In this document: in pieces, positions 1 to 13,110 of the stretch
Numbering within the stretch: position 1 is the first letter of the stretch
Layout: each line of letters opens with the position of its first letter
DNA from: a virus
UHGV virus genome: UHGV-0143428
DNA length: 13,664 bases
Strand: one strand, 5' to 3'
Translations under genes and position numbers: made by a program
The notes under the pieces: model-generated
What the model was told of the DNA's origin: nothing
Database searches by the model: none
The model's input: only the letters and a program-made list of their open reading frames with translations

Positions 1-48
1 CGAGATAGGCTCCGGTCTCGTGGGCTCGGAGATGTGTATAAGAGACAG
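1..48. other. Illumina Nextera P7-side adapter (non-biological contig-end contamination)
   Basis: Bases 1-6 CGAGAT (end of P7), 7-14 AGGCTCCG (8-nt i7 index position; as recalled the reverse complement of Nextera index N720 CGGAGCCT), 15-29 GTCTCGTGGGCTCGG, 30-48 AGATGTGTATAAGAGACAG (Tn5 mosaic end). Genomic sequence begins at base 49. Confidence 0.9.
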
Positions 49-50
49 GG

Positions 51-80
51 CTAGGGAAGGCTAACCTTCCCTAGTTTTTT
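51..80. terminator. Perfect 10-bp inverted repeat (CTAGGGAAGG-ctaa-CCTTCCCTAG) plus T6, immediately downstream of the 355-aa gene stop; terminator-like hairpin
   Basis: Stem 51-60 / 65-74, loop 61-64, T-run 75-80 on the + strand. On the minus strand the U-run side would lie in the adapter-truncated region, so its function for the minus-strand operon cannot be confirmed. Confidence 0.4.
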
Positions 81-81
81 A

Positions 82-1149
82 TTAGATAAGATCTTCCTCA
101 TCATGATCAAAGCCATACTGTAGAGCTTCAGATAGCTCAATTTGCTTATTTAAGTGTAGATTCACTCGAACAGCAATCCATTTAGCTGGACTTCCCATAC
201 CTGCTATATCCCCTATAGCAGCATTTCTTATCATTGCAGCTCCCCAAGAGTCCTCCCTTTGATAATGTGGATACTCTGCCAAAATTGATTTCGCAGCTTC
301 AATGAACCCTTCTTTATTCATCCCAGGGCGGCGCTCGAAATACCATGAATCATTTAACGCTATATCAATTCTAGGAACATATCGCCCAATTATGTTGTCA
401 TACACTACTGAATGAATTGAACCATGATCGCCATAAATAGCGACATCACTTCCACCAATATTTTGATGCAATTCTCTCTCAATAACATCAATATATCCGG
501 ACTGTCCATTTTCACGGCAAAAATTTGTAACTGAACTAGGGAAGCTTGTTGCTAGCACACTAATTATGGCTTCAGGAATCTCAGTTCTAATCTGATTAAT
601 CGAATTTATTGCTGCAGCTGTTATAGCAGATACATTCCCTCTAATGTAGCCCAAATCTATGAAAACTATGGCATTTTCTGGAGAGTTCATCGATACTAGT
701 GACGTCAGGGTTTTATTAATGTCTGTATTTAGATTTCTAATTCTAAATGCAATTGAACCTTTAAGTTCCTCTAAAACCCTGGCTTGGATAGATATATCTC
801 TAAGTTTTGCTGAATCCGGCATCTGGACTACTGGAATAATATTATCATTTCTGGAACAAAACTCTATCCAGTTTTTAAAACCATTCTCAGGAGAGAGTAG
901 TTCGAAGCTTGACGCGCAATGATGAGAATTATCCTTTGTGACATCCAAAATAAATGGGAGATTACTCATCACTTCTAAACTTTTATCTAACGATACCTGT
1001 ATTTCTTCCGAGCGAGGCCATTTCCCCAAAGAAATTAAAGGTAATATTTTTTTCTTATTCTCATATGATAAATTATTCAGTCCGGTCATTTCTGCTGATC
1101 GTGTTCTTAGGGCTGGATAGTATGAGTAATTTTCAAAATATACTTTCAT
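82..1149 (-). CDS. Hypothetical 355-aa soluble protein, distal gene of the hotspot cassette; candidate P4 beta-type protein (unverified)
   Basis: Uninterrupted 355-codon ORF with a GGAGG RBS about 11 nt upstream of the ATG. The start lies 2 nt after the stop of the upstream 133-aa gene (TAA-AT-ATG), indicating translational coupling. About 37% GC versus about 55-60% in psu/alpha. No Walker A or other motif I can recognise by eye. It sits where P4 carries gop-beta-cII, between cos and int. Confidence 0.7.
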   Translation of the reverse strand: MKVYFENYSYYPALRTRSAEMTGLNNLSYENKKKILPLISLGKWPRSEEIQVSLDKSLEVMSNLPFILDVTKDNSHHCASSFELLSPENGFKNWIEFCSRNDNIIPVVQMPDSAKLRDISIQARVLEELKGSIAFRIRNLNTDINKTLTSLVSMNSPENAIVFIDLGYIRGNVSAITAAAINSINQIRTEIPEAIISVLATSFPSSVTNFCRENGQSGYIDVIERELHQNIGGSDVAIYGDHGSIHSVVYDNIIGRYVPRIDIALNDSWYFERRPGMNKEGFIEAAKSILAEYPHYQREDSWGAAMIRNAAIGDIAGMGSPAKWIAVRVNLHLNKQIELSEALQYGFDHDEEDLI

Positions 1150-1151
1150 AT

Positions 1152-1553
1152 TTAATTAGCCTCCGAATCGATATTTTCTGGTCGGCTTGCTGTTCTTGGC
1201 ATAGCGTTAATTTGGGGGTTCTGAGTAGCAAGATAAGCAGCTATACTTTCCATCTTCTCTTTCTGTTCTGAAGTTCTTGCAAGTTCTTTAATCAATTCTT
1301 TGTTTTCAGCCATCAAGTTTTGATTGGATTCATTATGACTCTTGATTACCTCCATATTACTTTTTATAACATTCGTGTGGTTGTTGCTAATTGCTTTAAT
1401 CGTTCTGTGTGTAAACCATCCAATAAGTAAAGCAGCTAACCATCCAGAACAAACGAGCAACCATTGTGAAATATCTTGGTTGCGGATGAAGCTAGTAGCA
1501 ATAGTGATTATGGTCCCAACAACGCCAATTAATCCATATACATGATTCAGCAT
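1152..1553 (-). CDS. 133-aa small membrane protein (two N-terminal TM helices plus charged coiled-coil tail); candidate toxin/effector of the hotspot cassette, possibly gop-type (unverified)
   Basis: Hydrophobic segments at about residues 6-23 (YGLIGVVGTIITIATSFI) and 31-47 (WLLVCSGWLAALLIGWF), followed by a K/E/N-rich helical tail. It is the first gene after cos, transcribed away from cos, and is AT-rich like its partner. Confidence 0.6.
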   Translation of the reverse strand: MLNHVYGLIGVVGTIITIATSFIRNQDISQWLLVCSGWLAALLIGWFTHRTIKAISNNHTNVIKSNMEVIKSHNESNQNLMAENKELIKELARTSEQKEKMESIAAYLATQNPQINAMPRTASRPENIDSEAN

Positions 1554-1780
1554 CCTTTAACTCTCTCATGCCACGAATTCTTAAGGATCTTGCGACACTG
1601 ACAAGAACCACCTTACATCAATCTATTTTTTGCATATTTTTCAGGATAGTGCCATCAAAAAAGACAGTTTTGGACCATAGGCCATAGATTTTCTTCATTA
1701 TGCTCCAATGTATTAACGAGGTATGTACTGAAGGCACTTTGACTACACAAATAATTAACTAACTTGTCGGTTTGCGCGCG

Positions 1781-1799
1781 GTGCTTTCCCCGCCTCGCC
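1781..1799. other. cos site: P2/P4-type 19-nt cohesive end sequence
   Basis: GTGCTTTCCCCGCCTCGCC at 1781-1799 is the reverse complement of GGCGAGGCGGGGAAAGCAC, the cohesive end of P2/186/P4 as I recall it. It is located just beyond the psu stop, as in P4. Confidence 0.8.
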
Positions 1800-1900
1800 C
1801 GCCCGCTTTGCGGGGCGGTTTTAATGCAGTTGCACTGACACGCTCAGACCGCGCCGGGAATGGCGCGGTTTGCAGAAAATGAGGCAGGAAAACGCATGCA

Positions 1901-1934
1901 AAGCCATGCACCTTATCGATGCATGGCTTTTTTC
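1901..1934. terminator. Intrinsic-terminator-like hairpin between psu stop and cos
   Basis: AAGCCATGCA (1901-1910), 9-nt loop, TGCATGGCTT (1920-1929), then a T-run on the + strand. It lies about 30 bp downstream of the psu stop codon (1965) on the opposite strand, so it is possibly bidirectional. Confidence 0.45.
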
Positions 1935-1964
1935 AGTAAAAACAGGCGGATTTTTCGGGGAGTT

Positions 1965-2537
1965 TTACACAGACTGACGTGATGCCAGTTCTGCACTTTT
2001 ACGCGAAAAAATCATGTTCTGCGCAGGGGTGAATTTTTCACGGCTGTCATCCACCGAAGCCGCGTCAGGCCTGAATCCGATGGTCGTTAAAATGTCGCTA
2101 TCCTGTGCGGAATAATTAATTTTTTCCCCCTTCGCAAGCCAGGACAGAAGGGCTTCACGCAGGGCATCTGTGGCACGCTGTATGGCACAGTTTCGGGCAA
2201 TGGCCGTCAGCTCACTGTAGCCCATCAGCTCCGGTGCCAGTGCGGCCGCCAGTGCTGTGCCGTGCTGCTGCATAAAATCATTCAGCCGCTCGCGGATGCT
2301 GATGTGCTGAACGGCTTCATGCGAACGAATATAACGACCGGCGGCCTGATTCACCTGCCATTTTCTGACTTCGATAATATTGCGTAATTCGTCCAGGCGA
2401 CTGACGTTTCTGCCTTCTCCTGACAGAAGCCGCAGATATTCCTGTTCGGCCGCTGCCAGCTCATTTTTGCGTTGCAGCCATGCTGCTTTGTTATTCTGAC
2501 AGGTGTCAAAGGCCTGCTGTAAGGCTGTGCTTTCCAT
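1965..2537 (-). CDS. psu: Psu, polarity suppression / capsid decoration protein (P4-type)
   Basis: 190-aa ORF starting MESTALQQAFDTCQNNK. Length and N-terminus match my recollection of P4 Psu. It is the last gene of the sid-delta-psu operon, adjacent to cos. Confidence 0.85.
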   Translation of the reverse strand: MESTALQQAFDTCQNNKAAWLQRKNELAAAEQEYLRLLSGEGRNVSRLDELRNIIEVRKWQVNQAAGRYIRSHEAVQHISIRERLNDFMQQHGTALAAALAPELMGYSELTAIARNCAIQRATDALREALLSWLAKGEKINYSAQDSDILTTIGFRPDAASVDDSREKFTPAQNMIFSRKSAELASRQSV

Positions 2538-2610
2538 CGTTATCTCTTTCTCATCATGCTGAAGAATAAAAATACGGTGTGCGGCGACGGCCGGTGTTAA
2601 CCGGCAGCCC

Positions 2611-3111
2611 TCATTCCAGACGCAGCGAATATGATTGTGTTTTTAACCGTACTGGCGGCAGTTCCTGTTTTTCATGCAGGCGTTCTGCCAGTTCGTCCGG
2701 CGTGACCGGGCGGACAATGAAGCGGTTGATGGTCTGAAGCGTTTTAAACACCAGACCACAGCCCGGATCCGTGCACACATAAAAACGCTCGGTGACTTCC
2801 TGAGACAGACGCCGCGATGTTCTTGACAGTGCAAGGCCTTTACATCTCCGACAACAATATCCGGTAACAAGCATTCTTTTCGGGCGTTTCATACCGCAGG
2901 AGGCTGACGTCAGTGAATCGCGGTATCTCTGTTTGCCTGAAATGTATTCCATTCCTGAATCTTTACTGTCAGAGAAAAAGCTTTCACTCGCTTCAAATGT
3001 CGCAGAGCAATAAATATTCCGGCACTGTGCAATCATTATCTTGGTGCCATCGTCCATGAAATGTGCGCGACGGGTGTGAGCAACATGTCCACACGACGGA
3101 CAGTAAATCAT
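2611..3111 (-). CDS. delta: Delta, late-gene transcriptional activator (tandem Ogr-type zinc-finger protein)
   Basis: 166 aa. Two Ogr-like Cys4 units (CPSCGH...CRNIYC near the N-terminus, and CCRRCKG...CTDPGC in the second half). Its start overlaps the sid stop (ATGA). Length matches P4 Delta as recalled. Confidence 0.85.
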   Translation of the reverse strand: MIYCPSCGHVAHTRRAHFMDDGTKIMIAQCRNIYCSATFEASESFFSDSKDSGMEYISGKQRYRDSLTSASCGMKRPKRMLVTGYCCRRCKGLALSRTSRRLSQEVTERFYVCTDPGCGLVFKTLQTINRFIVRPVTPDELAERLHEKQELPPVRLKTQSYSLRLE

Positions 3112-3842
3112 GACAGCAGCCCTCTGGCCTTAAGCTCTGCTCCCTGCTGGTCTATTTTGTCCTGCCACACCTTGCGCTGTGCCGGTGTGCCTGCCACCTC
3201 ATAATCCATGTGCGGGAGTGTTGCCGCTGACAGTCCGGTCAGCCGGAGAACCGGCTCGCCGGTGAGGCTGATTTGCATCTGTTTAATTTTCTGTTCCAGC
3301 GATGATTTCACCTGCTGCATGACAGCCTTTTCCGGTGCGACGTAGCCCTGATGGCCGGTGGTGTTGGCGAGCGGATTTTCCTGTACCAGAATGCTCAGAT
3401 GCATTGCCCGGACAAGCGCCTCACAGGTTTCATTCAGGGCGTGTTCCAGCTCATGCTCTGCATACAGACTCAGAAGGTGATGATGTGCCTTCCGGTAGGC
3501 GGTGGCCGTGCTGTCACACGCCCCTTTCAGGCGTTCACGTTCGAAATTCAGCACCACGGCCAGATTGTCATATTCCTGTACCAGCTCCCGGCGTGCCACG
3601 CGCTCAATGTGGCGCTGTTTCAGCTCGTCGCTCAGGACACCACCGGCTGCACGAAAGGCCGTGCGCCAGTCGTCAGCGTCGTTTCCGTCGGCCTGCGCCA
3701 GCGCATTTTTTTCCTGCTCTGCCCGTTCAATGGCCGTGACGGTCTCATCCATCAGGCGGGCGTTCTCAAGATGGGCGGCTCTGGCCTTTTCCAGTTGTGC
3801 CAGTGCGGGTTGCAGATATTCAGGGATAGTGTGGTCAGACAT
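3108..3842 (-). CDS. sid: Sid, capsid size-determination (external scaffold) protein
   Basis: The ORF is open from 3860, but the GAGGAG RBS sits 8 nt upstream of the internal ATG at 3842 (MSDHTIPEYL...), giving 244 aa, the P4 Sid length as recalled. It is a helical, Q/E/A-rich protein and the first gene of the late operon. Confidence 0.85.
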   Translation of the reverse strand: MSDHTIPEYLQPALAQLEKARAAHLENARLMDETVTAIERAEQEKNALAQADGNDADDWRTAFRAAGGVLSDELKQRHIERVARRELVQEYDNLAVVLNFERERLKGACDSTATAYRKAHHHLLSLYAEHELEHALNETCEALVRAMHLSILVQENPLANTTGHQGYVAPEKAVMQQVKSSLEQKIKQMQISLTGEPVLRLTGLSAATLPHMDYEVAGTPAQRKVWQDKIDQQGAELKARGLLS

Positions 3843-3914
3843 TTTCCGGCTCCTCGTCACTTCAGGTTAAGAAAATTGTGACGTACACCGGACAACAACA
3901 CGACGCATTGCAGA

Positions 3915-3932
3915 TGTGCCAGCCCTGACACA
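3915..3932 (-). promoter_or_regulatory. Candidate Delta/Ogr binding dyad (TGT-N12-ACA) of the sid late promoter
   Basis: TGTGCCAGCCCTGACACA. Its centre is about 80 bp upstream of the sid ATG, which would place a transcription start about 25 nt upstream of the ATG if the dyad is centred at -55, as in P2/P4 late promoters. The motif is short and could occur by chance. Confidence 0.3.
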
Positions 3933-4011
3933 GGAGACTCATCCTCAGACCGGCAAGCCAGGAAAAGGTCGCAGGAAAAACCGGCTTACTGTTTGTTTTT
4001 TTATATTTTAC

Positions 4012-4116
4012 TGTTCACCTCTGTTCACCTTAATAAAAAAGATAAGTAATACAGTAAGTTAAAGGGTGAACAATCGCAGTAATGACTGTTCACCGTCTGT
4101 TCACCACTGTTCACCC
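4012..4116. repeat. Iteron cluster (TGTTCACC octamers), ori-like alpha-protein binding region
   Basis: Direct copies of TGTTCACC at 4012, 4022, 4087, 4098 and 4109, and one inverted copy (GGTGAACA) at 4065. Flanked by AT-rich tracts. P4 alpha binds iterons of this type in ori and crr (recalled). Confidence 0.75.
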
Positions 4117-4219
4117 GTTGATGGGCTTTTTGTGCTGTTTACTACTGTTTGTTTTTATTAATTCGCCGGGAATGAATAAGAAGAAACGATTTGTATTTCA
4201 CTATAAAAATTACAAATTG

Positions 4220-4249
4220 CTTTAAGTGGCTTTAAATGACTTTAAGTGG
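4220..4249 (+). promoter_or_regulatory. Helically phased triple CTTTAA repeat / duplicated TTTAAGTGG upstream of vis (candidate operator/promoter element)
   Basis: CTTTAA at 4220, 4230 and 4240 (exact 10-bp phasing). TTTAAGTGG at 4221-4229 and 4241-4249. It is located about 150 bp upstream of the vis start in an AT-rich region. Confidence 0.35.
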
Positions 4250-4394
4250 AGATGAACAAAAAACACACAGCCATTGTAAGGCAGCCTGAACAAATCCCCC
4301 CTGTTGCGTCTGCTGAAAATATTCACAAAATAAAGCGCTACCCGAAGCCGGACGGACTTATCCGGTGCTGTATGGACATTAACGAGGTAGCCCG

Positions 4395-4661
4395 ATGCAA
4401 GCTGTTTTTTCTTCCCCGTCTCCCGCCCCAGTGACGCCACTGATGCCGCTGCCGGACATCACGCAGGAGCGTTTTTTACGTCTGCCGGAAGTGATGCACC
4501 TGTGCGGCCTGTCACGCTCGACCATCTACGAACTCATCCGTAAGGGGGAATTTCCGCCGCAGGTGAGTCTTGGCGGTAAAAATGTGGCCTGGCTGCACTC
4601 TGAAGTCACCGCATGGATGGCCGGGCGCATTGCCGGACGCAAACGGGGGTACGACGCATGA
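4395..4661 (+). CDS. vis: Vis/AlpA-family excisionase-type transcriptional regulator
   Basis: 88-aa ORF with the AlpA-family signature ([32 protein letters not shown]). GAGGT RBS 8 nt upstream of the ATG at 4395. An internal start at MPLPD cannot be excluded. Confidence 0.75.
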
Positions 4662-5059
4662 TGATGCCCGCTCTGCAAAAACTCCCTTTTTCTGGCTTGC
4701 CTTTTTCCGGCATTTGCGGATATAGTTTTTCCGCTGCCGCAAAATCGGCAGCCGGGCGTGAGAACCCGAGCAATTCACAGGCGACATATGACGCGCCACG
4801 CGTCTTTTTTTGTGTCGCAATCAATGCCACAGAGCGCCAGATTATGGTGTGGTGTGTGGTCAGTCGTGCAGATGGCATTCCGTGCATCCTGCCCGCGTCC
4901 GCTCATTATGCCGCAGAGTCAATGGTAGCTCAGGCGGGGCAGCCTCCGGGCTGGCCGGTATCCGTTAGAGCCGGTATTCTCACCCCCGTCTGGGCTATCG
5001 CCATCGAGCGTGAGAACTCCGGCGATAGCGTTATTTGCTATTCACAGGAGGCTGCCATC

Positions 5060-5257
5060 ATGGCTACAACCCTTACCCCCTCACACCCTGAATTTGTCTT
5101 TGTGTTTGCGGCTGTCCGTCGCGCAGACCGTCATCCCCGTATCTGTATGCTTCGCACCGTCGCCGGTGATGAACGCAGTGCCCGCCGTTCCCTTGTCCGT
5201 GACTATGTGCTCTCCCTTGCTGCCCGTCTGCCGGTGGTGGAGGTGTCCCGTGCGTAA
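5060..5257 (+). CDS. Small hypothetical protein (65 aa) of the leftward operon, translationally coupled to the epsilon-like gene
   Basis: An internal ATG at 5060 within the long 4613-5257 reading frame is preceded by AGGAGG 7 nt upstream. The stop overlaps the GTG start of the next gene. The upstream part of the long ORF is more likely RNA/leader. Confidence 0.4.
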
Positions 5258-5537
5258 TAAAAAAGCCCCTCAGACCGTCTCAGCGCGTCATGACGCCCGT
5301 GAACACCTCAGCATTGAGGCTTACCATAAGCTCAACCGCGCCAGCGCCGTATCCCGGTTTGTTGGGGGTGATTTGATTCACCGTGAACTCTCCGGCCTGC
5401 ATCAGCTCTACATTCCGCATATTTTCAGCTACCTGAATGAAGATATTGATTTTGTGCTGAATGAGCTGAAAGCCAAAGGCCTGTGCCGCGATTTTCTCGC
5501 CCAGCAGAAAGACCGGGGAGACAGGACGCATGTTTGA
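5250..5537 (+). CDS. Epsilon-like protein (P2-derepression factor position), about 95 aa, GTG start
   Basis: GTG at 5250 preceded by GGAGGTG 5-6 nt upstream, in frame through the stop at 5535-5537, which overlaps the ATG of the orf151-like gene. Size and position relative to orf151/alpha match P4 epsilon as recalled; the sequence identity is not verified. Confidence 0.5.
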
Positions 5538-5985
5538 TTTTCCCCAGCCCGGTGAGATTTACCGTTCTGCCGGTTTTCCCGATGTGGCCGTGGTCGGCAT
5601 TCTGGAAGACGGTATTCCGTGGGAAATGCCGTACCGCTGCCCGGACATTGTCTGGAACCCGTACCGCCGTAAATTCAGTATCCTTGTGCGTATCCTCGCT
5701 GACGGACGCACCACAGACATCCCGCTGGGGCGTTTTCTGCGGGAATTTACCTGTGACCGTCCTGACCTGTTTAAACGCAGCCCCGTAAACCGGCATTCGG
5801 TACTGAAAGAAATGGCCGGAGACCCGGAATTACAGAAATGGCGGGAAAAATATCTGGATATTTACCCGCAGGACACTGTTCCGGTCAGCCGGGCAGCACC
5901 GGTGGCGCGGGAATGGCGGGAAATTCCCCGCACGGAGCCTGACCCGGAAACCACCCCGGATAACAGTTACCGCAATTATCTGTAA
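5530..5985 (+). CDS. orf151-like protein (151 aa) of the alpha operon
   Basis: Exactly 151 codons. Its ATG overlaps the upstream gene's stop. It lies upstream of alpha, as does P4 orf151. Confidence 0.65.
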   Translation: MFDFPQPGEIYRSAGFPDVAVVGILEDGIPWEMPYRCPDIVWNPYRRKFSILVRILADGRTTDIPLGRFLREFTCDRPDLFKRSPVNRHSVLKEMAGDPELQKWREKYLDIYPQDTVPVSRAAPVAREWREIPRTEPDPETTPDNSYRNYL

Positions 5986-6120
5986 TTAAAAAACGACCCC
6001 CGAAAAATTAAATGTGCGTATTCGCGCAGGGATACGCACGTCTTCAGGAGACGCAGATATGCCTTATCAGTTAATGCAACCGGCACGGAATGCAGTCATC
6101 TGTCACAGGGAGAAAAGCAA

Positions 6121-6441
6121 ATGAAAACACCCTTACCGCCCGTCTTACGCGCTGCCCTTTACCGTCGCGCTGTCGCCTGTGCCTGGCTGACCGTGTGCGA
6201 ACGTCAGCACCGCTACCCGCATCTCACCCTTGAATCACTGGAGGCGGCCATCGCCGCTGAGCTGGAAGGCTTTTATCTGCGCCAGCACGGTGAGGAAAAA
6301 GGGCGCCAGATAGCCTGTGCCCTGCTGGAAGATTTAATGGAATCCGGCCCCCTGAAGGCCGCGCCGTCGCTGTCCTTTCTCGGGCTGGTTGTGATGGATG
6401 AACTCTGTGCCCGTCACATAAAAGCGCCGGTACTGCACTGA
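6121..6441 (+). CDS. Hypothetical 106-aa protein immediately upstream of alpha
   Basis: ORF with a GGGAGA RBS, ending 14 bp before the alpha start. Preceded by a 21-codon upstream ORF whose TGA overlaps its ATG. Confidence 0.55.
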
Positions 6442-6455
6442 AGGAGAACAACACC

Positions 6456-8789
6456 ATGAAAATGAACGTAACCGCCACCGTCAGCCATGCGCTCGGCCAC
6501 TGGCCGCGTATTCTCCCGGCGCTGGGGATTCAGGTGCTGAAGAACCGTCATCAGCCCTGTCCGGTCTGTGGCGGGAGTGACCGTTTCCGTTTTGATGACA
6601 GGGAGGGGCGCGGCACCTGGTACTGCAATCAGTGTGGTGCCGGTGACGGCCTGAAACTGGTTGAAAAGGTGTTTGGTGTTTCCCCGTCCGACGCGGCCGC
6701 AAAGGTGGCTGCCGTGACCGGCAGCCTGCCACCGGCTGACCCGGCAGTGACGACCGCCGCCGGTGCTGAAACAGACGCTGCCCGGAAGAACGCCGCCGCA
6801 CTGGCACAAACCCTGATGGCGAAAACCCGTCCCGGAACCGGTAACGCCTACCTGACCCGCAAGGGCTTTCCCGGCCGGGAATGCCGGATGCTGACCGGCA
6901 CACACAGAGCCGGTGGCGTGAGCTGGCGCGCCGGTGACCTTGTGGTGCCACTGTATGACGACAGCGGCGAACTGGTTAACCTTCAGTTAATCAGTGCTGA
7001 CGGCCGTAAGCGCACCCTGAAAGGCGGGCAGGTCAGGGGCACCTGTCACATCCTTGAAGGACAGAATCAGGCCGGAAAACGTCTGTGGATAGCGGAGGGA
7101 TACGCGACCGCACTTACCGTGCATCACCTGACCGGTGAAACGGTGATGGTGGCGCTTTCTTCCGTGAACCTCCTTTCTCTGGCCAGCCTTGCCCGGCAGA
7201 AGCATCCGGCCTGTCAGATTGTCCTTGCCGCAGACCGTGACCTCAGCGGTGACGGCCAGAAAAAAGCCGCCGCAGCCGCAGATGCGTGTGAGGGCGTTGT
7301 TGCCCTGCCGCCGGTCTTCGGTGACTGGAATGATGCCTTCACGCAGTACGGCAGGGAGGCCACCCGTAAGGCCATTTATGATGCCATCCGGCCACCGGCT
7401 GAAAGCCCGTTCGACACCATGAGCGAAGCGGAGTTTTCCGCCATGAGTACCAGCGAAAAGGCCATGCGTATCTATGAGCATTACGGCGAGGCGCTCGCGG
7501 TCGATGCCAACGGCCAGCTTCTGTCCCGCTATGAAAATGGTGTCTGGAAGGTGCTGCCACCACAGGACTTTGCCCGGGATGTGGCCGGGCTGTTTCAGCG
7601 TCTGCGCGCGCCGTTCTCCTCCGGGAAGGTGGCCTCCGTGGTGGACACCCTGAAGCTGATTATTCCGCAGCAGGAAGCCCCCTCCCGCCGCCTGATTGGC
7701 TTTCGTAACGGCGTGCTCGACACGCAGAACGGCACGTTCCACCCGCACAGTCCGTCACACTGGATGCGCACCCTGTGCGATGTGGATTTCACCCCGCCGG
7801 TGGACGGTGAAACGCTGGAGACCCACGCCCCCGCGTTCTGGCGCTGGCTTGACCGTGCCGCCGGTGGCCGTGCGGAAAAACGCGACGTGATTCTGGCCGC
7901 ACTGTTTATGGTGCTGGCAAACCGCTACGACTGGCAGCTCTTTCTGGAGGTGACCGGTCCCGGCGGCAGCGGCAAAAGTATCATGGCCGAAATAGCCACC
8001 CTGCTGGCCGGGGAGGATAACGCCACGTCGGCCACCATTGAGACGCTGGAATCCCCGCGTGAACGTGCCGCGTTAACTGGCTTCTCACTGATACGCCTGC
8101 CGGACCAGGAAAAATGGAGCGGCGACGGTGCCGGACTCAAGGCCATCACCGGCGGCGATGCGGTGTCCGTTGACCCGAAATACCGGGATGCGTACTCCAC
8201 GCATATCCCGGCGGTGATTCTGGCCGTGAACAATAACCCGATGCGCTTCACCGACCGCAGCGGCGGCGTGTCACGCCGGCGGGTGATTATTCACTTCCCG
8301 GAACAGATAGCCCCGCAGGAGCGCGACCCGCAGCTTAAGGACAAAATCACCCGCGAGCTGGCGGTCATCGTGCGTCACCTGATGCAGAAGTTCAGCGACC
8401 CGATGCTCGCCCGGTCACTGCTTCAGTCCCAGCAGAACTCAGACGAGGCGCTGAACATCAAACGGGATGCCGACCCGACGTTTGATTTTATCGGCTATCT
8501 GGAAACCCTGCCGCAGACCAGCGGCATGTATATGGGGAACGCCAGTATCATCCCGCGCAATTACCGTAAATACCTCTATCACGCCTATCTGGCCTACATG
8601 GAGGCAAACGGCTACCGGAATGTACTCAGTCTGAAAATGTTCGGGCTGGGGCTGCCGGTGATGCTGAAGGAATACGGACTGAATTACGAGAAGCGCCATA
8701 CCAAACAGGGGATACAGACCAACCTGACGCTGAAAGAGGAAAGCTACGGCGACTGGCTGCCAAAATGTGACGACCCTACAACAGCCTGA
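6456..8789 (+). CDS. alpha: Alpha protein: bifunctional primase-helicase with C-terminal origin-binding domain
   Basis: 777 aa, the P4 alpha length as recalled. N-terminal zinc motif CPVCGG...YCNQCG, TOPRIM-like EGYATALTV and LAADRD, Walker A GPGGSGKS at 7951-7974, and Walker-B-like acidic residues. AAGGAG RBS 8 nt upstream of the ATG. Confidence 0.9.
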   Translation: MKMNVTATVSHALGHWPRILPALGIQVLKNRHQPCPVCGGSDRFRFDDREGRGTWYCNQCGAGDGLKLVEKVFGVSPSDAAAKVAAVTGSLPPADPAVTTAAGAETDAARKNAAALAQTLMAKTRPGTGNAYLTRKGFPGRECRMLTGTHRAGGVSWRAGDLVVPLYDDSGELVNLQLISADGRKRTLKGGQVRGTCHILEGQNQAGKRLWIAEGYATALTVHHLTGETVMVALSSVNLLSLASLARQKHPACQIVLAADRDLSGDGQKKAAAAADACEGVVALPPVFGDWNDAFTQYGREATRKAIYDAIRPPAESPFDTMSEAEFSAMSTSEKAMRIYEHYGEALAVDANGQLLSRYENGVWKVLPPQDFARDVAGLFQRLRAPFSSGKVASVVDTLKLIIPQQEAPSRRLIGFRNGVLDTQNGTFHPHSPSHWMRTLCDVDFTPPVDGETLETHAPAFWRWLDRAAGGRAEKRDVILAALFMVLANRYDWQLFLEVTGPGGSGKSIMAEIATLLAGEDNATSATIETLESPRERAALTGFSLIRLPDQEKWSGDGAGLKAITGGDAVSVDPKYRDAYSTHIPAVILAVNNNPMRFTDRSGGVSRRRVIIHFPEQIAPQERDPQLKDKITRELAVIVRHLMQKFSDPMLARSLLQSQQNSDEALNIKRDADPTFDFIGYLETLPQTSGMYMGNASIIPRNYRKYLYHAYLAYMEANGYRNVLSLKMFGLGLPVMLKEYGLNYEKRHTKQGIQTNLTLKEESYGDWLPKCDDPTTA

Positions 8790-8837
8790 CCCACCTGACC
8801 GGCATCTGCCGGTCTTTTTTTATCCCGACATCCCCCG

Positions 8838-9115
8838 AAGGTGAACAATCCACTGTTCACCCTTCACCGTATATTCACCCGTTATCACACTGAAATTAAA
8901 AGAGAAAAACGAAAGGTGAACAGTGTGAACAATCAAATCAAAAAAAACTTTTTTCTTCCTGAGTGATTTCAGTGCGGAGGATTAATCACCGGTATGAGTC
9001 ACACCGGCAGAATGCCGGAGGTGAAGAATCGAATGTTCACCCTTCACCCATTATTCACCACCTATCACTCTGAAATAAAAGGAGAAAACAGAAAGGTGAA
9101 CAGTGTGAACAGTTC
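8838..9115. repeat. crr-like cis replication region: two ~97-bp direct repeats (about 85% identical, period 180 bp) each carrying several iterons and followed by an A-run/T-run block
   Basis: Repeat A at 8838-8934 and repeat B at 9018-9114. Each contains GGTGAACA, TGTTCACC, CTTCACC, ATTCACC and the terminal GAAAGGTGAACAGTGTGAACA. A7/T6 tracts follow at 8938-8954 and 9120-9136. Confidence 0.75.
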
Positions 9116-9326
9116 TTTCGAAAAAAAATTTTTTATGTGGATAAAAGATGCACTGGTTTGGATCCGAGCTACGGATCCAAACTTACTGATTAAAAATGAT
9201 TTAACTTTCCGATTTATTGATGGGCTGAAAATAGATTGGTCAGAAAAACAGTGGGGGCACAAAAGGGGGCATATTTCATTGTTGTGTTTTATTATTTGTT
9301 TTTTATCATTAACTTATTTTGATGTT

Positions 9327-9346
9327 TGAGTCCGGCCTTCGCACCA
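9327..9346 (+). other. att core: 20-bp copy of a tRNA 3' end (T-arm/acceptor/CCA), tRNA-Leu (leuX)-like
   Basis: TGAGTCCGGCCTTCGCACCA matches, with one missing G, the 3' end of E. coli tRNA-Leu(CAA) as I recall it (..TTCGAGTCCGGCCTTCGGCACCA). Upstream sequence is AT-rich and not tRNA-like, so this is a core repeat (attR-type) rather than a full tRNA gene. Confidence 0.6.
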
Positions 9347-9359
9347 AAAGTATGTAAAT

Positions 9360-9384
9360 AGACCTCAACTGAGGTCTTTTTTTA
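9360..9384 (+). terminator. Rho-independent terminator (tRNA-type terminator on the chromosomal side of the att core)
   Basis: AGACCTC (9360-9366), loop AACT, GAGGTCT (9371-9377), followed by T7 (9378-9384). Confidence 0.7.
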
Positions 9385-9459
9385 TGCCTGAAATCCAGTG
9401 TTTATCTATCTTTCCCGCTATATTAACTCTCTCAAGGTCAACCGATATCAACGTACATC

Positions 9460-9477
9460 TACCAACATATGTTGGTA
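9460..9477. promoter_or_regulatory. 18-bp perfect palindrome TACCAACATATGTTGGTA in the integrase promoter region, plus a third half-site
   Basis: Perfect dyad at 9460-9477. An additional TACCAACA half-site at 9511-9518 lies just upstream of the int RBS (GGGAGGG). Candidate Int arm-type or repressor site. Confidence 0.45.
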
Positions 9478-9531
9478 CAGATGATGGTATTTCCGGTTCG
9501 ATAATGCTTGTACCAACAGGGAGGGAATACG

Positions 9532-10797
9532 ATGGCATTAACAGATATCAAAGTCAGAGCAGCCAAGCCAACGGATAAGCAATATTAGCTGACTGATGGT
9601 GGCGGTATGCATCTGCTTGTCCATCCAAATGGTTCTAAGTACTGGCGTTTGCAGTACCGTTATGAGGGAAAGCAAAAAATGCTGGCACTTGGGGTTTATC
9701 CTGAAATCACACTAGCGGATGCCAGAGTACGTCGTGACGAGACGCGTAAGCTGCTTGCGAATGGCGTCGATCCGGGAGACAAAAAGAAAAATGATAAGGT
9801 TGAACAGAGTAAAGCACGAACCTTTAAAGAAGTCGCGATTGAGTGGCATGGCACCAATAAAAAGTGGTCTGAAGATCACGCCCATCGTGTGCTAAAAAGT
9901 CTTGAAGATAATCTTTTTGCAGCGCTTGGTGAACGTAATATCGCTGAGTTAAAAACTCGAGATTTATTAGCACCTATTAAGGCCGTAGAAATGTCTGGAC
10001 GTCTTGAAGTGGCCGCTCGTCTTCAGCAGCGCACTACAGCCATCATGCGCTATGCAGTGCAAAGTGGGTTAATTGATTATAACCCGGCACAAGAGATGGC
10101 TGGGGCGGTTGCTTCCTGTAATCGACAACATCGTCCCGCGCTTGAATTAAAGCGCATCCCTGAGTTGCTTACAAAAATAGATAGCTATACTGGTAGGCCG
10201 CTAACCCGATGGGCGATAGAACTCACTTTGCTGATCTTTATTCGGTCCAGTGAGCTGCGTTTTGCTCGTTGGTCAGAGATCGATTTCGAAGCGTCTATAT
10301 GGACTATCCCACCGGAGCGGGAGCCTATTCCTGGAGTGAAACATTCCCATAGAGGCTCAAAAATGCGTACAACGCATCTAGTGCCTCTTTCAACGCAAGC
10401 TCTTGCAATTTTAAAGCAGATAAAACAGTTTTATGGGGCCCATGACTTGATATTTATTGGTGATCACGATTCGCACAAACCCATGAGTGAGAATACGGTA
10501 AATAGTGCGTTACGGGTCATGGGGTATGATACAAAAGTAGAGGTTTGTGGTCATGGCTTTCGAACAATGGCCTGTAGTTCATTGGTCGAATCAGGTCTGT
10601 GGTCTCGTGATGCTGTTGAACGTCAGATGAGCCACATGGCGCGAAATTCAGTGAGGGCCGCGTATATCCATAAAGCAGAGCATCTGGAAGAACGGCGATT
10701 GATGCTACAGTGGTGGGCCGATTTTCTGGATGTAAACAGAGAAAGGTTTATCAGTCCATTTGAATATGCAAAGATTAATAATCCATTAAAACAGTAA
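9532..10797 (+). pseudogene. int: P4-family tyrosine integrase with an in-frame amber codon at codon 19 (N-terminally disrupted; 396-aa ORF remains from an internal Met)
   Basis: ATG at 9532 with RBS encodes MALTDIKVRAAKPTDKQY, then TAG at 9586-9588, then in the same frame LTDGGGMHLLVHPNGSKYW... This is the conserved P4-type integrase N-terminus interrupted by a stop. The downstream ORF 9607-10797 carries the integrase catalytic region (R..H..R..Y type C-terminus). Confidence 0.8.
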
Positions 10798-12420: not shown

Positions 12421-12780
12421 GAGGGGGCCTTCGCTCCTCTGACATTACTCAGTATTTTCACTACTACACCCCATCTGCCATCCATAACAACCGATTCACC
12501 CCCTCGCGAGGCGTTGTTGCCCGTCACCCGGACAGACACCGTTATGGACTTCTCTTGTTGCACGATCGATCAATTGTTATGCATGCTGACACCACAACCC
12601 CGGTGGGTATGACCGATGCCTTTCTCACTCTCTTCCCGGTCATCGTCGGCCTTCCCCGTTATTGTGGCGTGTCAGCACCCTCGACGGCATTTCGATGGCT
12701 GCTCAGTGTTCACTCACGTTACGGCCCGCATAACCCGTTGACTTCCTGAAGAAGTCGTTTCAGGGAGAGATTCAGCCCTT

Positions 12781-13110
12781 TTGTTACCTCCTGGACCGCT
12801 TCTTGTCCTTCCAGTCGGAGCGAGAGTTAGCCGGGGCGGACTTTCACCGACGGAAAGATCGTGCATTTCAAGGCACACACAACAATATCTGCGAGCGTGC
12901 TATCCGTCCGGTCGTTATGGGACGAAAGGCCTGGTTGTTCGCTGGTTCACTGGTGGCCGGGAACCGCGCGGCACAGATAATGAGCCTTCTGGGAACCGCA
13001 GTCTGGAGCCACATGCTTGGCTGACGGACGTCCTGACGCGTCTGCCGGAGTGGCCGGAGGAGAGGTTGGCTGAGTTACTGCCTCTTGAGGGCTTTACCTT
13101 CTTCGGGTAA
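12781..13110 (+). mobile_element. IS66-family transposase 3' remnant (C-terminal about 100 codons, frameshifted, lacking the DDE domain)
   Basis: Frame 1 (12803-13024) reads NNICERAIRPVVMGRKAWLFAGSLVAGNRAAQIMSLLGTA; frame 2 (to 13110) reads PHAWLTDVLTRLPEWPEERLAELLPLEGF. Together these are the conserved IS66 TnpC C-terminal block, split by a frameshift near 12990-13020. No upstream catalytic region is present. Confidence 0.6.

Follow-up and report, generated by a model that had tools for sequence, protein, structure and literature searches.

Paired Modules of Predicted alpha-Binding Iterons in the crr of a Phage P4 Prophage

The window, a 13,664-nucleotide stretch of viral DNA (UHGV virus genome UHGV-0143428) that was analysed in full, carries the crr of phage P4 at 8835-9134. 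Very probably, this is a non-coding cis replication region in which paralogous 120-bp modules of predicted alpha-binding iterons serve as an auxiliary to the replication origin, ori. Its identity with P4 crr, its iteron content and the statistical excess of iterons, its pattern of conservation, and its non-coding status were all observed here.

crr and Its Direct Repeats

In the GenBank records X05623, X51522, and NC_001609, P4 positions 4291-4590 are annotated as crr, the cis required region for P4 replication. These positions correspond to 8835-9134 of the window, and 299 of the 300 nucleotides are identical. The GenBank features 'crr' and 'crr 120bp direct repeat' map exactly onto the coordinates found in the window. 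Judged by its sequence, the region is P4 crr itself and not merely crr-like, and nothing counts against this identity. The earlier note, which had called the region crr-like and had seen in it the two-site architecture of P4 (ori plus crr), thus understated the match. As such, crr is already known, being annotated in P4 records X05623 and X51522.

The region shares with those records its two 120-bp direct repeats 60 bp apart, the five annotated type-1 iterons in each, and its location past the alpha terminator and before attP. Each repeat is a 100% match to its NC_001609 counterpart, and the sole difference within crr is one substitution in the spacer, at 9004. The surroundings differ as well, since the window holds an integrated prophage with attR and not a phage genome.

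Repeat A (8835-8954, + strand) and repeat B (9015-9134, + strand) are supported by annotation and by a repeat finder, which reported one family with two ungapped copies, 82% identical and 180 bp apart from start to start. Pairwise alignment gives 98 identical positions out of 120, or 82 of 97 (84.5%) over the first 97 columns. Two repeats of about 97 bp, about 85% identical and spaced 180 bp apart, had been proposed before. Self-alignment shows the repeats to be present, and their similarity and spacing (starts at 8835 and 9015) stand, but the proposed length does not. The repeat unit is 120 bp, because the A/T block at its end belongs to the repeat. The likeness is well above the level seen in comparable DNA: the best 80-nt diagonal downstream of alpha matches at 34-42 of 80 positions in most single-module loci, versus 68 of 80 in the window. 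The 60-bp spacer between the repeats (8955-9014) has an AT fraction of 0.50, against 0.62-0.64 in the repeats, and is not conserved in relatives.

A scan of the whole window at Rfam gathering thresholds gave no RNA family match within 8700-9400. In P4 phasmid work, crr is called essential for replication (bioRxiv 10.64898/2026.03.30.715334). The region is routinely retained in P4 phasmid and cosmid designs.

The Prophage and Its Integration Site

Window positions 48-9346 align with phage P4 (X51522/NC_001609) at about 99.4% identity in reverse orientation, and coordinates can be converted as window = 13425 - P4 coordinate. As read from these alignments, the element is a P4 prophage integrated at the tRNA-Leu gene leuX, and the window shows its attR end. 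The attP/attR core lies at 9328-9346 (+ strand), as placed by annotation and by alignment to the reference. Homology to P4 stops at 9346, inside the attP core, and the DNA beyond is E. coli chromosome with remnants of a tyrosine recombinase and a phosphoethanolamine transferase. In a near-identical genome, the opposite prophage end adjoins a full tRNA-Leu. ARAGORN finds no tRNA in the whole window, so the junction at 9346 is the attR side, which holds only the duplicated 3' part of leuX. Relative to the P4 reference, the attP core has a 1-nt deletion; the other differences nearby are at 8829 and 9004.

The two repeats of crr could be imagined to be part of attP itself, as binding arms for Int, IHF, or Vis in integration or excision. 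This reading draws on position, as crr is only about 190 bp from the attP core and repeat B falls between alpha and attP. However, attP has arm-type repeats of its own. These are GGGGGCA-type 12-mers that differ in sequence from the crr words and sit outside crr, at 9251-9274 and beyond; the two at 9251-9274 (+ strand; GGGGGCACAAAA GGGGGCATATTT) are annotated and are kept in E. coli relatives. The words found in crr are instead those of ori, 4.9 kb away. In addition, many relatives keep a module beside the alpha terminator with the next module downstream of 0.3-2.2 kb of cargo, in loci whose att site was not located. An attP function for the repeats is most improbable on this evidence, and the reading of crr as a replication region is retained.

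A perfect 11-bp inverted repeat, GTTTGGATCCG-5 nt-CGGATCCAAAC, lies at 9156-9182, between crr and the arm-type sites. The P4 record has no annotation for it. Its GGATCCG...CGGATCC core is kept in E. coli relatives at 72-76% identity, where the flanks have diverged. It is probably the site of an accessory protein of attP.

Directly 3' of the attR core, at 9360-9384, there is a terminator-like hairpin followed by a T-run. The segment 9324-9396 matches the tRNA-Leu region of a Salmonella genome. The hairpin is likely to be the terminator of leuX, left in place at attR.

At the other end of the window, positions 1-47 have no match in P4 or in the closest E. coli prophage, and both alignments begin at 48. 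This position equals P4 1752, which adjoins the stop codon of cII (P4 1746-2540) and falls inside the terminator annotated for that gene. For other prophages, alignment starts no earlier than about 1770. The unmatched end is consistent with the known variable defence hotspot between psu and int, which holds gop, beta, and cII in P4.

Two RNA features were also noted. Rfam matches at 4720-5005 (+ strand) to C4 antisense RNA, its a1/b1 targets, and isrK mark the known immunity (CI RNA) region of P4. In the chromosomal flank past the prophage, 12714-12853 (- strand) gives a gathering-level match to domains D1-D4 of a group II intron (RF02003, 69 bits against a cut-off of 49).

Iterons and A/T Blocks

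Both repeats carry the same sites in the same order. The first site in each is a leftward iteron (GGTGAACA in A, GGTGAAGA in B), which is followed after 6 nt by a rightward TGTTCACC. The degenerate iteron CTTCACC abuts TGTTCACC; then come TATTCACC and a 35-nt AT-rich gap. A leftward tandem pair, GGTGAACAgTGTGAACA, ends the series and is separated by 8-9 nt from the A/T block.

In repeat A, the first iteron (8840-8847, - strand) is an exact type-1 iteron and forms an inverted pair, with a 6-bp gap, with a second exact copy at 8854-8861 (+ strand), which was found by word search and is annotated. CTTCACC follows at 8862-8868 (+ strand); it is unannotated in the P4 record and is kept in relatives. 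The variant TATTCACC at 8872-8879 (+ strand) is annotated and was found by a search allowing one mismatch. The tandem pair at 8915-8931 (- strand), of which 8915-8922 is exact and 8924-8931 has 1 mismatch, is among the most conserved parts of the module.

In repeat B, the first iteron (9020-9027, - strand) is a type-1 variant that reads GGTGAAGA on the + strand; it was found by the one-mismatch search and is annotated. An exact iteron at 9034-9041 (+ strand; word search and annotation) is followed by CTTCACC at 9042-9048 (+ strand), read from the sequence, and by the variant TATTCACC at 9052-9059 (+ strand; one-mismatch search and annotation). The tandem pair occupies 9095-9111 (- strand), with 9095-9102 exact and 9104-9111 carrying 1 mismatch. 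The ordered set of iteron variants listed in the earlier note holds as to order, with two amendments: the first iteron in repeat B reads GGTGAAGA and not GGTGAACA, and the CTTCACC sites are those at 8862-8868 and 9042-9048.

Exact copies of TGTTCACC number 11 in the 13.7-kb window, against 0.51 expected, and this count was reached in 0 of 200 shuffles. Five of them are in crr, six are at 4012-4115, and none is found elsewhere in the window. With up to one mismatch allowed, there are 29 copies in the window against 11.6 expected, and 10 of these fall within the 300-bp crr. The ten crr iterons, five exact and five with one mismatch, match ten annotated 'ori type 1 repeat' features.

An A-run and a T-run follow the iterons of each repeat, as had been described. 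Module A ends in an A8-C-T6 block (8940-8954) and module B in an A8-T6 block (9121-9134). Among 67 dereplicated modules, the block is conserved to the same degree as the iterons, and its duplex stability is locally low. By nearest-neighbour calculation, the blocks belong to the least stable 0.18-2% of P4 windows at 15 bp and to the least stable 2-4% at 30-60 bp.

The block had also been suggested to be an unwinding element. The nearest-neighbour stability profile does not support this role. Low stability spans no more than about 15 bp and is far less pronounced than at ori, and no extended low-stability segment is present at crr.

The Open Reading Frame over Repeat B

A 111-codon open reading frame (8994-9329, + strand) overlies repeat B. 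It is given in the list of open reading frames and appears in NC_001609 as RefSeq P4p05, 'Predicted by GeneMark'. If this frame encoded a protein, the repeats would be incidental to a gene. The frame is open with an ATG start, it is annotated in NC_001609, and a PGAP hypothetical protein is found at the same place in some near-identical E. coli prophages. A GGAGGA precedes the ATG, although at a distance of 12 nt.

Evidence that the frame is not a gene is provided by its relatives. Among 80 related loci, similarity detected by tblastn is limited essentially to residues ~4-48, which are translated repeat B. The same query also matches repeat A and ori, so what is conserved is iteron DNA. The only other conserved patch, 'WGHKRGHIS', is a translation of the attP arm-type repeats at 9251-9274. 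A few matches are longer (L018, L038, L026, L010, and L025), and they contain 1-6 in-frame stops. In E. coli relatives at 72-76% identity, neither a corresponding frame nor an annotation is found there.

The frame itself does not look like coding sequence either. GC content at codon positions 1, 2, and 3 is flat (35/34/39%), compared with 64/47/72% in alpha. No sigma-70-like promoter site is found within 8600-9500, and the alpha terminator lies upstream. That P4p05 encodes a protein can hardly be maintained, and the frame is judged not to be a gene. The opinion that it is an artefact is thereby borne out by in-frame stops, similarity confined to DNA sites, flat codon-position GC, and the lack of a promoter-like site in the interval searched. 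Where RefSeq and PGAP place a 'hypothetical protein' across repeat B and attP, the entry should be treated as spurious.

P4p05 and the equivalent PGAP calls in E. coli prophages cover sequence from crr repeat B and from the arm-type repeats of attP, and they extend into the attP core by its first bases.

The Origin and Its Relation to crr

The other cluster of iterons consists of six exact copies of TGTTCACC at 4012-4115, which equals P4 9310-9413. In NC_001609 these are annotated as 'ori type 1 repeat' within a rep_origin feature (9086-9809). The second iteron cluster, noticed earlier at a distance of about 4.9 kb, is therefore the annotated P4 ori, and the separation of ori and crr is indeed about 4.9 kb from centre to centre.

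The two sites have TGTTCACC iterons in common, as well as a sub-plan that appears when ori is read as its reverse complement. A profile of the crr module weakly matches ori on the opposite strand. In the corresponding alignment, the reverse complement of ori follows the right half of the module: a rightward iteron is followed by a 35-nt AT-rich gap, then by two leftward iterons, and finally by an A-run. ori differs from crr in its six exact iterons at 10-11-bp spacing, its type-2 repeats, and its far lower duplex stability. It also has no T-run after the A-run, and it is unduplicated.

The two sites also share words in related elements. There, the ori position carries the same 8-mers, with a CTGTTCAC core, as the crr of the same relatives. 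In Pantoea-type elements, words of the GTGAAGGA/CCTTCACC type are common to ori and crr. Counts of iteron words at the two sites show a modest, overall weak correlation across loci (Spearman 0.32-0.37), in a calculation that ignores phylogeny, and no conclusion is based on it.

Because crr shares its iterons and overall module plan with ori, and has short AT-rich blocks of low stability, it could be thought of as a second independent origin or a preferred priming site. The stability of the DNA argues against this. At 15, 30, and 60 bp alike, ori falls in the bottom 0.03-0.2% of P4 windows for duplex stability; at 30-60 bp, crr reaches only the least stable 2-4%, versus 0.1-0.2% for ori. The low stability of ori, compared with the short-range low stability of crr, is consistent with strand opening at ori. 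P4 replication begins at ori and is bidirectional. In addition, the rep_origin feature in GenBank covers only 9086-9809, and crr is labelled 'cis required'. Initiation at crr is thus very unlikely, and an auxiliary role remains the preferred reading.

crr Modules across P4-like Elements

To follow the region through related elements, the alpha protein (777 aa) was used as an anchor to fetch 80 Enterobacterales loci, with alpha identities of 58-99%. A module profile was built from 16 modules, and column conservation was calculated from 67 dereplicated modules. Modules A and B of the window score 96 and 101 bits against this profile.

The conserved unit is one module of about 119 nt. It is found in most of the 80 loci with the same iteron order, the same orientation, and the same A/T block. 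The profile detects it downstream of alpha in nearly all loci, without exception on the strand of alpha; it directly follows the terminator in the majority of loci and lies 0.3-2.3 kb further on in others. Hosts include Enterobacter, Klebsiella, Citrobacter, Kluyvera, Tatumella, Edwardsiella, Mangrovibacter, Pantoea, Rosenbergiella, and Pectobacterium. In one Serratia element, the module lies about 270 nt further downstream. Four distant loci (L071, L073, L077, and L078) have no match to the module profile, and a few others (for example L027, L058, and L079) match it at the ori position only.

In the 67 modules, conservation is highest in the columns of the iterons and of the A-run/T-run block. 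The AT-rich gap is constant in length and variable in sequence. A similar pattern can be seen in E. coli copies at 72-76% identity. There, the conserved islands are the terminator, the iterons, the A/T block, the GGATCCG...CGGATCC palindrome, the arm-type sites, and the attP core. In the 60-bp spacer these copies are unrelated, and one of these relatives has a single module.

The tandem pair of modules, with 166-180 bp spacing, is restricted to the P4 subclade. A modules, including that of the window, cluster with the A modules of other elements (83-90% identity), to which they are closer than to their own B (64-82%), and the same is true of B modules. Since A modules resemble each other more than they resemble B modules, the duplication is old and both copies have been kept. 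The A and B modules of P4 itself are unusually alike, at 81%, which suggests some homogenisation between them in this phage.

Four of the loci (L004, L005, L006, and L040) are short contigs with 98-99% alpha identity, from metagenome-assembled genomes labelled Ferruginibacter, Clostridiales, 'bacterium', and Ruminococcus. The short contigs L004 and L005 carry crr too. All four are almost certainly mis-binned E. coli/P4 contigs.

Defence Cargo between alpha and the Modules

In about one third of relatives, 0.3-2.2 kb of DNA lies between alpha and the module, or between two direct modules. Loci with such an interval, within 0-2.4 kb past the alpha stop codon, are L029, L030, L033, L035, L044, L054, L056, L062-L066, L068-L070, L012, L032, L034, L038, L042, L060, L074, L080, and L083. 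Among the proteins encoded there are an AriA/OLD/GajA-like ATPase, SIR2, FRG/PDC-S15, Mrr-like PDC-S02, and Fic/PDC-S04.

A minor hotspot for defence cargo between the primase gene and att has already been reported (PMC13586616). The observation that crr modules often bracket this hotspot is an addition, and it may be unreported.

The 60-bp spacer of P4 was considered as an empty cargo site, an idea that module typing does not support in this sample. The cargo-bearing loci have the arrangements S...cargo...S or S...cargo...S+B, and never A...cargo...B.

Several of these points can be joined into a wider proposal. The unit of crr would be a single module of about 119 nt, with an A/T block as constrained as its iterons from Escherichia to Pantoea, Pectobacterium, and Serratia; the A/B duplication would be ancient; ori would be an inverted, diverged module; and the modules would bracket the cargo hotspot, where they could anchor recombination. 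The proposal, which may exceed what has been published, is put forward tentatively, and it is doubtful that all of it will hold together.

If it were true, crr modules could be anchors for homologous recombination through which satellites exchange cargo.

Of practical use is the conserved single-module profile, a simple marker for crr in the thousands of P4-like satellites, including those in which cargo has pushed crr 1-2 kb from alpha. For the design of a minimal P4 replicon, the iterons, the 35-nt length of the gap, and the A/T block are seen to be constrained, and the 60-bp spacer is not.

alpha and the Proposed Role of crr

The alpha gene (6456-8789, + strand; 777 aa) is present in the list of open reading frames and corresponds to the alpha gene product in X51522 and NC_001609. 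It is followed by a rho-independent terminator at 8797-8821 (+ strand; stem-loop 8797-8814 plus T-run), which was found by a terminator scan and is annotated as 'talpha' in X51522. A hairpin and T-run 3' of alpha are also seen in the downstream sequences of most relatives. Residues 671-770 of alpha match PDB 1KA8, an origin-binding winged-helix domain, with E=1e-63. The protein is described as having primase, SF3 helicase, and C-terminal winged-helix origin-binding domains (PMC2777425), and it is essential for P4 replication (PMC8628076).

How crr might act can be pictured as follows. alpha oligomers bound at crr and at ori would interact through a DNA loop. Looping would raise the local concentration of alpha at ori and stabilise the initiation complex there. 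Opening, helicase loading, and priming are proposed to take place at ori, since it is ori that has easily melted DNA. crr would then be a cis-acting auxiliary loading or enhancer site rather than a second origin. The A/T block may be an intrinsic bend or a fixed spacer, going by the general behaviour of A-tracts. Two copies are not a general requirement, since many relatives carry one module only.

In earlier work on P4, alpha reportedly binds type-1 iterons at both ori and crr, crr functions at varied distance and in varied orientation, and looped complexes of ori and crr were observed. The binding by alpha, the cis requirement, and the looping are taken from prior work or inferred for the present element. 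The primary papers on P4 replication are reportedly those of Flensburg & Calendar 1987, Ziegelin et al. 1993/1995, Tocchetti et al. 1999, and Yeo et al. 2002.

Alternatively, crr could act mainly in negative control or incompatibility. By titrating alpha, or by handcuffing ori to crr across sister copies, its extra iterons would limit copy number in the plasmid state. P4 can exist as a plasmid, and auxiliary iteron arrays outside origins generally act in this manner in iteron plasmids, for example P1 incA and F incC. The number of modules varies from 1 to 3 among relatives, as might be the case for a dosage-type control element. Against this, both the name and the annotation of crr point to a positive role, that of a region required for replication. 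Negative control as the main function is accordingly unlikely. The two kinds of function are compatible, and crr may have a supplementary part in copy control in addition to its role as an auxiliary site for initiation at ori.

Comparison with Known Systems

A likeness to the proposed arrangement can be found in plasmid R6K, where one initiator binds iterons that are kilobases apart on one molecule and an origin fires only with the distant site present in cis. In R6K, the initiator is the pi protein, the enhancer at the gamma ori acts on the alpha and beta origins, and looping is mediated by the initiator. The two systems differ in their proteins, as pi is a Rep-family initiator unrelated to P4 alpha, which is a primase-helicase with a winged-helix domain. 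They also differ in that the iteron-rich site of R6K enhances other origins.

P1 incA and F incC are similar to crr in being clusters of initiator-binding repeats that lie outside the origin and beside the initiator gene. These clusters exert negative control over copy number, whereas P4 crr is annotated as required for replication.
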